Assembly: GCA_038108555.1 (NCBI GenBank)
Contig: JAYNIA010000041.1
Location: 1-23,835 of the forward strand
Direction: 5' to 3'
DNA: 23,835 bases
Source: Nitrospinota bacterium
GTDB lineage: Bacteria; Nitrospinota; Nitrospinia; Nitrospinales; VA-1
A program made the position numbers. Positions within the stretch are counted from its first letter, which is position 1. Each line of letters opens with the position of its first letter. Positions 17,301 through 23,835 of this stretch are shown one piece after another.

Positions 17301-20300
17301 ATTCCCGTGCAAAGTCCCATAAAAAAAAGTGACAACCAGACCTGCCAATGCCCATAGCCTTTTCTATTAAAACGTTTCCACAGGTCCTGCCTTTTCTCTT
17401 TGGGCAGGTTCTTGAATTCGGGAATTGATTTATTTGTTAAATACATTCCTTAAAATATTATGGCGGTCAAAAAAATATTCCTGTGTGAATTTTTATAACC
17501 GGATTAAAACAATTTCATACTGCTAAACCAAGGTTATTTTTTCCATTAAAAATCCCTCCATTTTCATCTCAAATTATTTTGCATTTCAAAGGCAATGATA
17601 AATCGCGGTTTATTCCCTTCCTCCTGATTTGAATATTTTATTTCCCTAAAATGGTATCTATTTTGCTCTTTAAATTATTACCCTGGCAAAGTATTCGATA
17701 CGGGTTGCGGATCTATTCAGACCGTCGCCTCCAGGGAACAAATTCTTTCACGTTTTCGGGTGTGAGCTATGAACGGTATAAATGAGATGATGGAGTTTTT
17801 TTCGCAAAAGGTTTTTCTGATTTCTTTCGGGCAAATTGGTTTGATGTTCCTCTTATGTTTCTTCTGCCTCATAAGCGGTCGCTATAAAACCGGCCTGCTG
17901 TTTTCCTATTTTTTCATTTTCTATTGGGGATTCGTGTCCAACCGGGGGCATTGGATATCTCTGTTTGGAGACCATGGAACCGGGATGGTGCTTTACTTAT
18001 TCAGCGCTACGGCAGTTGCTTTAATGGGGGTAATCAGTATTTTTCAGGAAAACCATTGAAATTTTTTACCGATCTCAGTCTAAAAAATTTGGTTTTGGCT
18101 AATTTATCAGGAGGTTGAGCCGTAACATTTTATATAGGCTAAAATTTTTGAGGTTTCTCATGCTTTTCCTGGATGAAATTAGAAAAGTCCCTCGTGAAAC
18201 CCCGGTTCCCAGGGACCAAAAAAACCGACCCAAAAAAGTCCTAAAGGATCGACGCCGGCGCACCCACACCGACCCCGAAAATCCTATCCAATCCTCCAAA
18301 CAATTCTTTGGCAGAATCTGCCGAATAGACGAACAGGTTTAACCCGCCCACTACCGTGGGAGGAAATGTAAGCAAACGCACCGTAAAAGGCTTAAAAATC
18401 CTTTCTGGGTATTTGGGAATAGACCCTACTACACCCGGACGTAGTCCGGATTTTGGGGTTGAAATCTGGCGTATCTTCAACTAAAATCAGGGTTATTAAG
18501 GAGATTAAAGATGACCATTGATGAAGTTCGACAGATTATTTTGAGCATTCTTGAGGATATCGCCCCTGATGAAGATATCAGCTCAATTGATGACAACACC
18601 AAGTTAAGAGACCAAATTGACCTTGATTCCATGGATTTTCTCGACATTGTCATGGAATTGCGGAAACGCTTCAACATTGAAGTGCCGGAAAAAGATTATG
18701 AACATCTGGCTACCCTGGCGGGTTGTATCACCTATTTGCAGCCCCTTTTGAAAGACCGGCTTGCCGCAAGCTAGTTTCTCCCCCCTGCATCTTTGACCCC
18801 AAACATTCTCTAATAAAACGAAACTATCGGCGCACGTTTGATAGTTGATTTATACTATTTGAGCCATGGCATACGATGCGATTATCATAGGTTCCGGGCT
18901 ATCCGGATTGGCTGCGGGCATTCGACTTGCCATGTTCAACAAGAAGGTCTGCATCGTTGAAAAACATACATTGCTGGGCGGCTTGAATTCCTATTACGTC
19001 CGCAAGAACCGGACGTTCGATGTGGGCCTGCACGCAATGACCAATTTCACTCCGAAAGGAGTGCGCAACTCTCCGCTTGGCAAACTTCTAAAACAACTCC
19101 GATTCAGCCACGACGATTTCCGCCTTTGCCAGCAGCATATGTCGGAGATCCGCTTTCCTGAACATGTTTTGCGGTTCACTAATGATTTTGAATTCTTCCG
19201 CCAGGAGGTCGCCGACCAGTTCCCAAAAGAGATTGACGGATTCAACAAACTCGTGGAAAAAATTCTCTCTTTCGATGAGCTGAATCTGGACGATCAGCAA
19301 GCTCTAGGGTCTCGGCCCATTCTGGAAGAATATATAAAGGACCCAGTTTTAATCGACATGCTCAATTGTCCCCTGATGTATTACGGAAACGCCCGTGAAG
19401 GGGATATGGATTTTTACCAGTTCGTGATCATGTTCAAAAGTATCTTTATGGAGGGCTTTGCCAAACCGGTGGGAGGGATGCATTACATCCTGCATTTGCT
19501 GGAAGAAAAGTTTAAAGAACTAGGCGGAGAGTTGCGAATGGGGTCGGGTGTCACTTCCATCAACGCAGAAAATGGAATCGTGCAATCGGTGACTCTTGAA
19601 AATGGTGATGAGCTGACCAGTGAAAGTGTGATTTCTTCCATGGGATATGTCGAAACCCTGAGACATTGCTCACCGCCACTGAGCGAACCCGATGCAAAGG
19701 ATATTGGCCAGATGTCTTTTATGGAATCTTTATGTGTGGTCGATCAGGAACCCCGCGACCTGGGTTACGACAAGAGCATTGTGTTTTTCTCCACCCAACC
19801 CAAATTCGACTATAAGGTTCCTGGGGAGTTGATCGACGTCACCACGGGTGTTTTGTGTTGCTCCAATAATTTTGATTATCCACAACCCATGAAGGAAGGA
19901 CTGATCCGCCTGACGAATATGGCAAATTTCGCCCATTGGGACTCATTACCGCGAAAAGATTATATTGCAGCGAAAAAGCATTGGCGGACCCAGGCGCTGG
20001 AGTCGGTTTTCACATTTTTTCCCGATTTTCGTGATAATGTGGTATTTTTAGACTCGTTTACGCCGAAGACCATTAAAAAATATACCGGACACCTGAACGG
20101 GGCTGTCTATGGGTCTCCACGTAAAATAAAAAACGGTAAAACCCCTGTTAACAATCTCTTTATATGTGGGACGGACCAGGGGTTTTTAGGTATTATTGGG
20201 GCCACCCTGAGCGGCATTTCAATGGCCAATCTTCATGTTTTACGTAAATAAAATAAGCGTAAACAAATAATTTAATTGCGAATAGTGAATGAGTAAACCA

Positions 20301-23300
20301 CCACGGCCACGAAACTGGTTAAAAGACATTCAATCGGCATATGATACGGTTGTAATTGGTAGTGGCCTGGCGGGCATGACATCTGCCAACCTTCTTGCCA
20401 AACTGGGTCACAAAGTCCTGCTGGCGGAACACCATTATAATCTGGGTGGAATGGCAACCTGGTTCAAACGCAAGGGAGGCCATATCATGGACATCTCCCT
20501 ACACGGGTTTCCTGTGGGCATGATCAAAACCCTTCGCAAGTACTGGTCAAAAGATATTTCTAACCGGGTCATTCAATTGAAAAACGTCCGGTTCGATAAT
20601 CCCCAGTTCTCAATCAACACCTCTTTCGACAAAATCGATTTTACCCATATCCTCAAAGAACGTTTTGGGATACTCAAGGAAAGTATCGACGAATTTTTTC
20701 AAACCGCGCGCGGAATGAATTTCTATGACGACATCGTCATGACCACACGCGAATTGTTTGAAAAATATTTTCCAGGTCGTACCGACGTTTGGCGATTCCT
20801 GATGGAACCCATCACTTATGCCAACGGTTCAACGCTGGATGATCCTGCTATCACTTACGGCATTGTGTTCTCCAATTTTATGGATAAGGGGGTTTTCACC
20901 TATCAAGGCGGCACCGACCACCTGATCAAAGAAATGAAAAAGGAACTGTTGAGCAATGGCGTTGATATTCGCACCCATTGCATGGTGGAAAAAATTTATG
21001 TCGAGGATAAAGCCGTGCAGGGAGTTCGCATCAACGGTCAGGATATTTCCTGCAAATCGGTTCTATCCAATTCCAATATTGTAACAACCATCGAACAGCT
21101 GGTGGGTGAGGAAGAATTTGATCCAGAATATATAAAAGAAGTTAAAAATGTACGGCTCAACAATTCCAGTTGCCAGGTTTATATGGGAATTAAAAAAGGG
21201 GAGACCATCCCGCATGTGGGCGATCTACTTTTTTCATCAGAAGCCGATGAATACTGCACCGAACAAATATTGAGCAAAGATATAACCAGCCGGACTTTTT
21301 CATTTTATTACCCTGAAATTCGTCCGGGCACAGACCGGTACTCCATCGTCTCTTCAACCAATGCGAGGTATCAAGACTGGGCCCATCTCAGTGAAGAACA
21401 ATATCTGAAAGATAAGCATGATCTGGAGCAAACGACTCTTGATTCTCTGGAAAAATATGTACCCGGAATCCGTAATAAAATAGACCACATAGAGGCTTCC
21501 ACACCCAAAACTTTTAAACGCTACACCCTGCATCCGTCTGGAACTTCTTTCGGAACGAAATTTGAGGGACTCAAAGTCAGCCGCGACCTTCCCAAACAGA
21601 TTAAAGGGCTTTTCCATGCCGGGTCTGTGGGCATCATAATGTCTGGTTGGCTGGGGGCCGCCAATTATGGTGTCATCGTTGCAAATGAAACCGACAAGTT
21701 CCTGCGAGAACTAAGCCCAACTCTGGTTACTGCTTAATTTTTTAGCTTCTTTCCTTCCTTCTTTTCCCATTTTAATTTAATATTGTCCCATGGAATTTGA
21801 TTTTAAAGGACAAACCGCTATTGTTACAGGGGGTACCCGTGGAATCGGTCGGGCTGTTTCTGAAGCTTTTCTCAAGGCGGGAGCAAAAGTAATTGCCAGC
21901 TACCGAAGTAATGAGGCAGAGGCTCAAAATTTTAAAGAGGCCAATTCCGGACATGCAGAATGTCTCGATATCCATAAGTTCGATGTCACCCGTTATGAAG
22001 AAGTGGAAAGCTTTTTCAAGGAAGTTGAAGATAAACACGGGGCTCCCCAGATCGTAGTCGTCAGTTCAGGAATTCGTGCCGACTCCATTGTGGGTATGAT
22101 GAAAACAGAAGACTGGAACAATGTGATCGACACCAATCTGACAGGAACATTTAATGTCTGCAAACTTTCTGTTCAATGCATGATGCGGCAAAAATATGGA
22201 CGTATCATTACCCTGACCTCACCTATTGGAAAATTTGGTTTTGCCGGACAAAGCAACTATGCCGCTTCGAAAGCAGGGCAGGTGGCTTTGGTTAAATCTT
22301 TATCCAAAGAAGTGGCCAGCAGAAAAATTACGGTCAATTGTGTTTCGCCAGGTTTCATTGATACGGATTTTATTTCCGATTTGCCGGATGAGCAAAGGGA
22401 GGCTTATAAAAAACAAGTTCCCTTAAAACGGTTTGGATCGGCTCAGGACGTTGCAACCCCGGTACTGTTCCTGGCCTCAAGAGAATCTTCTTACATCACC
22501 GGATCAGTGCTAGAGGTAACCGGGGGACTTTAAAATATGTCGCAGGATTTCCTTCAATACATCCCACACCGCCCGCCTTTTTTGTTTGTAGATAAAATCA
22601 TTGAAGAAGGAAAAGATACTATCAAAGCCGAAAAGTTTATCGATCCGGGCGAGCCCTTTTTCCAGGGCCATTATCCCGATCGACCTATTATGCCGGGAGT
22701 TTTGATCTTCGAATCCATCTTTCAAACCGGAGCCATCATGATGGGGAAGCGAATCTCAAATGAAGGCCGCATTCCCGTTCTTACCCGGGTGAACAATATT
22801 AAACTGAAACATGCGGTTAACCCCGGGGACACTCTGCAAATTGAAGTTAAACTCAAAGATTTGGTAAGCACTGCAGCTTATATGACAGGCAAAGCTACCG
22901 CCAATGGAAAAACAGCCGTAACTCTTGAGTTCACCGCCATGCTAGTTGAGGATACCAAATGACCCTCTGGCGAGGGAGGCAAGAAGTAAGAATTTTATAG
23001 AGCAAAAAATAATTTTTCTATATAGAAAGTATTTCGTGTGAGTTTTCTAAACCTTGAAAATAAAAAAATTTTGGTTACAGGCGTCGCCAATAAAAAAAGT
23101 GTGGCCTGGCATATTGCTAAAACTCTGGAAGAGGAAGGTGCTGAAGTTATCTACAGCGTACGTTCTGAAGATAGAAAAAACTCCTTAAACAAACTGCTGG
23201 ATGGGAAACCGGTTTATATTTGTGATGTGGAAAAACCAGAAGAGATTGAACGCTTAAAAAATGATTTGGAAAAAGATTATAAAACCCTGCATGGATTGGT

Positions 23301-23835
23301 TCACTCAATAGCGTTTGCCAATTACTCTGAAGGCTGGAAACCTTTTCATGAAACCTCACGCAAAGATTTTTTGCAATCAATCGACATTAGCTGTTATTCG
23401 TTGATCGCATTGGCAGACTCCTTAAAAGGTATGTTGGACAAAAACGCTTCAGTCGTCTCCGTTTCCATTTCAACGACCCGTATGGCTGCTGAAAATTACG
23501 GTTATATGGCTCCCGCAAAAGCCGCTCTTGATTCCACCCTTTGCTTTTTAGCGAAATCATTCAGCGCATTTTCCGAAGTTCGGTTTAACTCGATCAATCC
23601 CGGACTACTGAAAACCTCTGCCTCTGCGGGAATTCCCGGGTACATAGACTCCTTCCTGCATGCTGAAAAAGCAACGTTAAGAAAAAAAGCCATCACCACC
23701 CAGGAAGCCGCAAACGCGGCTGTCTTTTTATTAAGTGAACGCTCAAGCGGTATCAATGCCCAGGGAATAGTATTGGACGCAGGAATGTCCATTAACTATT
23801 TTGATCAAAAGCTGATCAAACCCGATTAGCTGAAG

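Follow-up and report, generated by a model that had tools for sequence, protein, structure and literature searches.

What does a second set of type II fatty acid synthesis genes, enclosing two phytoene desaturase-like flavoproteins, do in a Nitrospinota bacterium, and where do its acyl chains go? We addressed this question in the window, a 23,835-nucleotide stretch of contig C41 of this organism (source genome G000), by comparing the locus with the rest of the genome and with related loci from other phyla.

Gene content of the cassette

The six-gene set ACP-PD1-PD2-FabG-FabZ-FabI that the initial annotation had placed at C41:18511-23829 was recovered there as open reading frames, all on the + strand. 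The first gene (18511-18774) encodes an acyl carrier protein (ACP) of 87 aa (PF00550, E = 2e-9) with Ser40 inside a conserved DSMDFLDIV motif; it is 31% identical to the housekeeping ACP and 52-62% identical to its orthologues in Planctomycetota and Nitrospirales loci. PD1 (18866-20251; 461 aa; PF01593) is an FAD-binding flavoprotein of the CrtI/RetSat fold, and PD2 (20289-21737; 482 aa) was assigned to the same fold by profile match, identity and an AF2 model. They are followed by a FabG ketoacyl-ACP reductase (21790-22533), which has the YxxxK motif, shares 39% identity with the housekeeping FabG and reaches 277 bits with TIGR01830, slightly below the cut-off of 298. Next come a FabZ dehydratase (22537-22962; NF000582, 125 bits, above the cut-off of 113), whose His45/Glu59 pair is of the FabZ and not the FabA type, and a divergent FabI enoyl-ACP reductase (23038-23829), recognized by profile match and its Yx6K motif. 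Promoter-like sites occurred at chance level (13 versus 11.6). The housekeeping fab operon does lie elsewhere, as fabH-fabD-fabG-acp-fabF on C19.

The ketosynthase (KS) of the cassette was correctly located at the start of C48, where C48:3-422(-) encodes the first 140 aa of a cassette-type FabF, 87% identical to that of locus L022. The genes had been described as split over several contigs, and the KS indeed stands apart from the cassette, but this is not only a matter of assembly since the KS is truly separate in this genus. C79:1-900, considered as the remainder of this KS, was ruled out as a third FabF with 31% identity to it. The three KS of the source genome are all single-domain. In the cassette KS, polar TEHG and HHHNP motifs stand where FabF has apolar pocket-lining residues. 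Stand-alone ACP, KS, KR, DH and ER proteins are thus present with their catalytic residues, the Cys-His-His triad of the KS being read in orthologues (the KS of the source genome is assembled for 140 aa only).

Whether the set is "dedicated", as first described, depends on the enzyme considered. It is a second gene set besides the housekeeping operon, but its FabI is the sole FabI match in the source genome and in three closed genomes, none of which yielded a FabK; FabV searches carry no weight, as the controls also gave no match. Because the cassette FabI is the only recognizable enoyl reductase in Nitrospinales, the cassette is not wholly dedicated, and housekeeping synthesis may use the same FabI.

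Ole genes in Nitrospinota

Both oleA and oleB were confirmed on C23. The OleA is FabH-like, scores 452 bits with PRK09258 (cut-off 285) and has the catalytic residues E97, C123, H275 and N305, while its orthologue in the genus matches Xanthomonas OleA structures (E = 1e-72). The adjoining OleB-like gene encodes a haloalkane dehalogenase fold. At the end of C42, where an oleC start had been reported, the last 75 codons match OleC N-termini (E = 1e-10) and the gene is cut by the contig end. OleD, annotated as missing only here, was indeed not found in the source genome; beyond that earlier count, however, it is present in 59 of 71 Nitrospinota genomes (with scores below the NCBIfam cut-off), and oleC in 61. 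In relatives, the sequence ahead of oleD corresponds to the beginning of C21, and oleD does not adjoin oleC in the source genome. The distance between oleA and the cassette is large in Nitrospinales (1.34 versus 2.84 Mb in G004).

PD2 is as widespread in the group as had been proposed, occurring in 62 of 71 Nitrospinota genomes and in 59 of the 61 from the order Nitrospinales. At least one of oleA, oleC and oleD accompanies it in 62/62 genomes, and all three in 51. Six genomes are devoid of PD2 and of the three ole genes, and G041 has ole genes and Pfa without PD2.

The cassette and Pfa alternate beside Ole

In Shewanella and Geobacter bemidjiensis, the Pfa polyunsaturated fatty acid (PUFA) synthase and OleABCD together give C31:9 (PMC6463001, PMC4882568). 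Neither multidomain PfaA nor PfaD was found in the source genome (92% complete). Among 301 Planctomycetota genomes, in which the cassette was scored by PD2 or cassette FabF and which include related, non-independent genomes, OleA was present in 123: 92 with the cassette, 31 with PfaD and 0 with both. None of the 92 cassette genomes was without OleA and none had PfaD, while a PfaA-like match was seen in all 31 PfaD-bearing OleA genomes, 25 of them above cut-off. G288 combines the cassette with a PfaA-like PKS but has no PfaD. A RecA tree of 71 genomes, based on one gene and a quick search, implies at least five PD/Pfa changes. In the OleA tree, the 16 sequences linked to Pfa group in a single clade (SH-aLRT 99) that excludes the 34 linked to the cassette. 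The locus was rightly called Pfa-independent. That the two modules exclude each other, and that each goes with a separate OleA clade, indicates a common role, not necessarily an identical product. The Atlas lists Verrucomicrobiota clusters; the genome counts given here are for Planctomycetota, Nitrospinota and Nitrospirota.

Gene order points the same way. The cassette and ole genes share one locus in three phyla (in Nitrospirales, in Planctomycetota and at L091 of Nitrospinota), the full oleABCD set being linked to the cassette in Nitrospirales and at L087. Among 80 metagenome loci, 18 combine the cassette with ole genes. Loci encoding Pfa have a counterpart arrangement, the operon pfa-oleABCD. 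The single operon ascribed to Nitrospirales holds for 7 of 11 loci, which contain oleA and oleB (the other four are short upstream), but it is rare, being found in a narrow lineage that accounts for 1 of 111 Nitrospirota. The proposal that the cassette feeds OleABCD is supported by this linkage and by the Pfa-complementary distribution, and the Ole link is stronger than the initial annotation claimed. From the genes, folds, linkage and distribution observed, we infer that acyl groups very probably flow from the cassette to OleA.

As in the Pfa system, OleABCD would have a private ACP-based acyl supplier in the same operon slot beside ole, and the OleA catalytic residues are kept. The supplier differs, however, in consisting of stand-alone FAS II enzymes and two CrtI-fold flavoproteins, without multidomain KS, PfaD or FabA-type domains, and the OleA lineages are separate. 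According to the accessible part of a 2009 paper (PMC2649909), Desulfotalea psychrophila makes C31:8 and C31:9 without Pfa, and two PD-like genes belong to one of its FASII clusters; desaturation is proposed there as a novel way to PUFA under anaerobic conditions, with no Ole link in that part. As described, its FASII clusters (DP1860/DP2405/DP2406) resemble the cassette in having PD-like flavoproteins, and in the same part FabI is placed outside the clusters, unlike the cassette FabI. The cassette together with Ole was not found described in the literature covered, which excludes most subscription papers.

PD1 and PD2

The two flavoproteins score weakly with CrtISO and CrtD, as noted initially, and indeed fall far below every Crt family cut-off. 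CrtISO is the best NCBIfam match of PD1 (95.5 bits versus a cut-off of 587); against the curated CrtI, CrtD and CrtISO models the two proteins reach at best 95-98 bits (cut-offs 550-587), and with crtI_fam 57 and 82 bits (cut-off 238). Nevertheless, both have the GxGxxG motif and the FAD-binding CrtI fold: the AF2 model of PD1 (pLDDT 91.7) has 4REP as its top Foldseek match (TM 0.76), and that of PD2 (pLDDT 90.5) matches 4REP with TM 0.74 and Z 32. PD2 is 24% identical to PD1 and 58-67% conserved between phyla. CrtI, CrtD, CrtISO, RetSat and the Propionibacterium acnes fatty-acid isomerase 2B9W (Z 23.2) share this FAD-dependent fold, but PD1 and PD2 are only 13-20% identical to them and are encoded among acyl-ACP genes, not among carotenoid genes as in CrtI-type systems. 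Gene context and sub-cut-off scores rule out a carotenoid role; the anammox PD-like proteins are reported to have shown no CrtI activity (PMC4790861). The modelled fold is compatible with desaturase, isomerase and reductase alike.

One PD2-FabZ fusion was found (P0002), and no PD1 fusion at E 1e-30 among proteins of 808-2305 aa, which is weak evidence. A fused ORF at L063 was rejected as a true fusion: about 100 aa of PD1 are missing from it and are encoded in a different frame, which suggests a frameshift.

Proposed role and alternatives

We favor, with moderate confidence, the view that the cassette and the C48 KS are a type II stand-in for Pfa giving polyunsaturated acyl-ACP to OleA, with cis bonds set by PD1 and PD2. 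FabF, FabG, FabZ and FabI would elongate the chain on the private ACP, while PD1 and PD2 would take enoyl intermediates on the ACP as substrates and set cis double bonds in them with no need for oxygen. Pfa requires two kinds of isomerization (PMC4882568). PD1 and PD2 would most likely be reduced-flavin isomerases covering these two jobs of the Pfa dehydratase domains: conversion of a trans-2 into a cis-3 bond, and conversion of a trans-2 into a cis-2 bond (or, on a dienoyl intermediate, of a trans into a cis bond). This chemistry is advanced tentatively, and a methylene-interrupted C16 product is reasonably probable. OleA, which accepts acyl groups from ACP (PMC6463001), would take the product, probably 16:4n-3, off the ACP, and OleBCD would complete a C31:9-type olefin. 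Of the unusual, probably polyunsaturated acyl-ACPs first suggested, a Pfa substitute feeding Ole stands, whereas polyunsaturation is what we infer for its product.

The cassette could also feed Ole with PD1 and PD2 as redox enzymes, either CrtI-like desaturases extending unsaturation, as in the 2009 proposal, or RetSat-like conjugated-dienoyl-ACP reductases, in which case an olefin other than C31:9 might result. Structurally, PD1 and PD2 come nearest to carotenoid desaturases (4REP, 5MOG, 4DGK), the source annotation of one family member reads all-trans-retinol 13,14-reductase, and in both proteins the D-x-x-x strand is followed by a His, as in RetSat. CrtI chemistry, however, extends conjugation and does not create skipped cis bonds, the 2-enoyl bonds already come from FabZ, and the Crt scores are low, so that we consider redox roles rather unlikely. 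It is less probable still that another kind of unusual acyl chain (branched, very long or hydroxylated) is made, with OleA as primer or ketone-forming condenser and a final lipid other than a polyunsaturated olefin. The FabH-like OleA, the polar motifs of the KS and 7 of the 80 metagenome loci, which read oleA-fabF-acp-PD1-PD2 with no oleBCD in the available sequence (oleA-fabF is duplicated in two), would fit such a product; the exact complement to Pfa would be left unexplained, and the joined oleABCD and the frequency of oleA, C and D among PD2 genomes argue against it. The sole FabI of Nitrospinales, together with the fact that dxr-ispF precedes the cassette at 16 of 39 Nitrospinota loci, might suggest a mainly housekeeping function there, the supply of unsaturated fatty acids to membranes, with incidental ole co-occurrence. 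This is very doubtful given that two Planctomycetota genomes have both cassette and canonical FabI, and that ole genes always accompany the cassette in both phyla.

A relation to the anammox ladderane cluster, and with it ladderane-like or precursor lipids, had also been put forward. The four best PDB matches of the cassette FabZ are amxFabZ entries, as stated (82-78 versus 74 bits). Anammox Cluster I (kuste3603-3608; PMC10139942; bioRxiv 10.64898/2026.05.19.726425) likewise combines private ACP, FabZ and FabF with a PD-like gene, and a B12 radical SAM gene adjoins the cassette in 2 of 80 metagenome loci. The PDB matches are not four independent ones, 7QV0 and 8AYC being near-identical variants. 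The link does not hold, since anammox-type FabZ, FabF and ACP resemble the housekeeping copies of the source genome more than those of the cassette (L098 FabZ, FabF2 and ACP: 119 versus 87, 311 versus 197 and 30 versus 26 bits). Moreover, the anammox PDH is 23-26% identical to PD1 and PD2, and trees separate both sets, the cassette FabZ forming its own clade (98/96) apart from amxFabZ. AmxFabZ proteins share 65-84% mutual identity and the hallmark tunnel residue Ile69; the cassette FabZ shows 39% and Ala66. Cluster I has one PDH, a KS/CLF-like pair (FabF2/FabFmut), a B12 radical SAM enzyme and no FabG or FabI, its proteins not being orthologous to those of the cassette, which has a single active KS and, in the window, no radical SAM gene. 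Pairwise scores and trees thus largely refute this kinship, which we regard as highly improbable, and a false lead is removed.

Implications

To judge from its genes, the cassette is probably an oxygen-independent way to polyunsaturated lipids. It may represent a third way to methylene-interrupted polyunsaturated acyl chains, in addition to O2-dependent desaturases and Pfa, namely a type II FAS with two CrtI-fold flavoproteins isomerizing enoyl-ACP to alternating cis bonds. If so, CrtI-fold enzymes acting on acyl-ACP would be new chemistry, and omega-3 chains could be made by a modular pathway that needs no oxygen. The cassette also offers a seven-gene, testable candidate for a question open since 2009, the origin of C31 polyenes in Pfa-free bacteria. 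Nitrospinales, which are major marine nitrite oxidizers, and many planctomycetes would then be C31:9 producers by the cassette route. Polyunsaturated olefins are accordingly predicted in Nitrospinales, which bears on a dark-ocean source of such hydrocarbons.

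A second set of fatty acid synthesis genes in Nitrospinota

The window is contig C41 of G000, a Nitrospinota genome of 2.9 Mb that is 92% complete. Six ORFs, for ACP, PD1, PD2, FabG, FabZ and FabI, fill the interval 18511-23829 on the plus strand, PD1 and PD2 being two CrtI-fold flavoproteins with 24% identity to each other. This cassette is a real, conserved and uncharacterised gene set. Our literature search found no paper on it, and it is not described in the sections available from PMC4790861, PMC3578206, PMC7064751 and bioRxiv 10.64898/2026.05.19.726425. The initial annotation called it a dedicated type II system. 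Its ACP, FabG and FabZ share 31-41% identity with the housekeeping ACP and FabG (contig C19) and FabZ (contig C4). Apart from the cassette FabI (23038-23829), G000 and the three closed Nitrospinales genomes G002, G004 and G027 yielded no FabI-like gene, and no FabK was found. The Nitrospinales FabI may therefore serve both pathways, so that the cassette would not be fully dedicated. In Planctomycetota, two genomes with the cassette have a canonical FabI as well.

The cassette KS (FabF) begins on contig C48, where the initial annotation placed it, and lies downstream of dxr-ispF. PD1 preceded PD2 in all 39 Nitrospinota loci, and KS was directly upstream of ACP in 16 of them, with one extra gene in between in two of these. 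KS stands apart in the genus of G000, where unrelated genes precede ACP, and where KS and PD2 were on different contigs in five of five congeners. G000 also has a third FabF with a GCTSS motif (C79:1-900), with a lipoprotein-like gene after it, that is distinct from both the housekeeping and the cassette KS. Upstream of the cassette, at 14790-16678, the window encodes an NTP transferase and a 322-aa barrel protein resembling squalene-hopene cyclase, both found at the same position in several close relatives. The window also carries two multihaem c-type cytochrome genes (482-2327; 280 and 325 aa); several further Nitrospinaceae loci have these genes downstream of the cassette. In the region 6879-9300, a Fic/DUF4172 gene and a SieB-like superinfection-exclusion gene come after tRNA-Val(GAC); the arrangement resembles a small insertion at this tRNA.

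Among 71 Nitrospinota genomes, PD2 was found in 62, oleA in 60, oleC in 61 and oleD in 59, and all four were absent from six. Every PD2 genome carried at least one ole gene (62/62), and 51 had oleA, oleC and oleD together. The closed Nitrospinales genome G014, which keeps PD2, oleC and oleD, has its oleA in two pieces (C1:35478-36520), reflecting a frameshift or a sequencing error. Three genomes were ole-positive without PD2. One (G030) has a cassette FabI broken off at a contig end, and another (G069, 88% complete) is an outright exception. The third, G041 (loci L100 and L101), has Pfa and a Pfa-type OleA in place of the cassette; since this OleA nests among planctomycete Pfa-linked OleAs, its phylogeny suggests a module replacement.

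The cassette and Pfa exclude each other in Planctomycetota

Our main result is the complementary distribution of cassette and Pfa. One set of 301 Planctomycetota genomes was searched for OleA (123 genomes), PD2 (91), cassette FabF (91, of which 90 common to PD2) and PfaD (33). All 92 cassette genomes had OleA and none had PfaD, while PfaD was present in all 31 remaining OleA genomes, a pattern that supports the Pfa-independent supply to Ole that had been proposed. None of the four proteins was detected in 176 genomes, and PfaD occurred without OleA in two. These counts and those for Nitrospinota are given without a P value because kin among the genomes are not independent. In an 80-genome subset, all 31 Pfa genomes had a PfaA-like match (above cut-off in 25); among its 43 PD2 genomes, a strong PfaA-like PKS was present in G288, which lacks PfaD, and weaker PKS matches occurred in 13. 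In a quick RecA tree (80 rows; G077 left out as no RecA was found), 40 cassette and 31 Pfa genomes required at least five changes, several within one well-supported clade (in which PfaD was scored for all but two named-locus genomes). At Pfa loci oleABCD is joined to pfa genes, the mirror image of the cassette operon. The 16 Pfa-linked OleAs, G041 included, formed one group in an OleA tree of 52 rows (SH-aLRT 99); thus the two suppliers are each accompanied by a distinct type of OleA. Pfa-like clusters are listed for Gemmata and Planctomyces limnophilus in the relevant part of PMC3098273. As for the lipid itself, n-C31:9 has been reported both for Lacipirellula parvula (PMC6995999) and for Gemmataceae (PMC7534041).

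Linkage to ole genes

In G000, oleA and oleB were located on contig C23 and an oleC start on contig C42, as annotated, and oleC in a Nitrospina MAG is noted in a passage of PMC10176705. The Nitrospirales operon oleA-B-C-D-fabF-acp-PD1-PD2-fabG-fabZ-fabI was likewise seen in 7 of 11 loci, the other four being cut upstream (one retaining oleC-oleD). It is rare within its phylum, PD2 and OleA each occurring in 1 of 111 Nitrospirota genomes, both times the centre genome of the set. In Planctomycetota, oleA lay at most 16 kb from the cassette in 11 of 91 PD2 genomes; the 10 of these loci examined, picked for that closeness, had the cassette with oleA, often with oleC/oleD. In the Nitrospinota locus L091, oleC-oleD precede the cassette. 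Among 80 metagenome loci retained out of 565, an ole gene was present in 18 and a pfa gene in none; the 37 loci above 12 kb account for 14 of the 18. Seven loci (L236, L237, L239, L240, L275, L277, L289) showed the variant oleA-fabF-acp-PD1-PD2-fabG-fabZ-fabI without oleBCD nearby; oleA-fabF was duplicated in L237 and L240, fabD was added in L239 and L240, and a B12 radical SAM gene lay upstream in L240. In L271 (569-13300), ole genes and cassette form one complete operon, in which a radical-SAM-like gene separates oleD from fabF and oleB-oleC share one open frame.

Relationship to ladderane genes and proposed chemistry

The suggested kinship with the anammox ladderane cluster was rejected. 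L098 (G213:C14:65500-71800) is an anammox-type Cluster I with ACP, FabZ, two FabF, PDH and B12 radical SAM; its host genome also has PfaD and PfaA-like genes, without OleA. Its FabZ, FabF2 and ACP were nearer to the G000 housekeeping proteins than to those of the cassette, its PDH shared 23-26% identity with PD1/PD2, and trees split cassette FabZ (98/96) and KS (100/100) from its proteins. The section of PMC10139942 on amxFabZ defines it by an Ile in the tunnel and by 65-84% identity among its members, whereas cassette FabZ has 39% identity to amxFabZ and Ala at that position. The likeness of Cluster I to the cassette is only architectural.

Cassette FabZ carries the His/Glu pair that marks FabZ enzymes rather than the Asp of FabA. 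The KS, as seen in its orthologues, retains Cys-His-His, and its pocket region carries conserved polar motifs. PD2 forms a close-knit family (58-67% identity across phyla); in one record (P0002) it is fused to a FabZ of the cassette type, which suggests that the substrate is an acyl-ACP. Both flavoproteins scored far under every Crt family cut-off. Their predicted models (pLDDT 91.7 for PD1, 90.5 for PD2) best matched the carotenoid desaturase 4REP (TM 0.76/0.74, Z 32), with the fatty-acid isomerase 2B9W amid the pack of matches (Z 23). CrtISO requires reduced FAD. We tentatively propose that PD1 and PD2 are isomerases, because the fold has isomerase precedents (CrtISO, 2B9W) and Pfa requires two isomerisations, trans-2 to cis-2 and trans-2 to cis-3, according to the relevant part of a review (PMC4882568). 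By analogy, the two flavoproteins would serve two kinds of cis bond; their chemistry may instead be that of a reductase or desaturase.

The same part of that review derives C31:9 from two 16:4n-3 chains, and a passage of PMC6463001 has OleA receiving the 16:4n-3 chain from ACP. For the Pfa-free Desulfotalea psychrophila, which contains C31:8/C31:9, PMC2649909 proposed a new anaerobic FASII route with PD-like enzymes, and the sections of it consulted make no mention of Ole. From its gene content and distribution, the cassette is the predicted acyl-ACP supplier of the Ole pathway, replacing Pfa.
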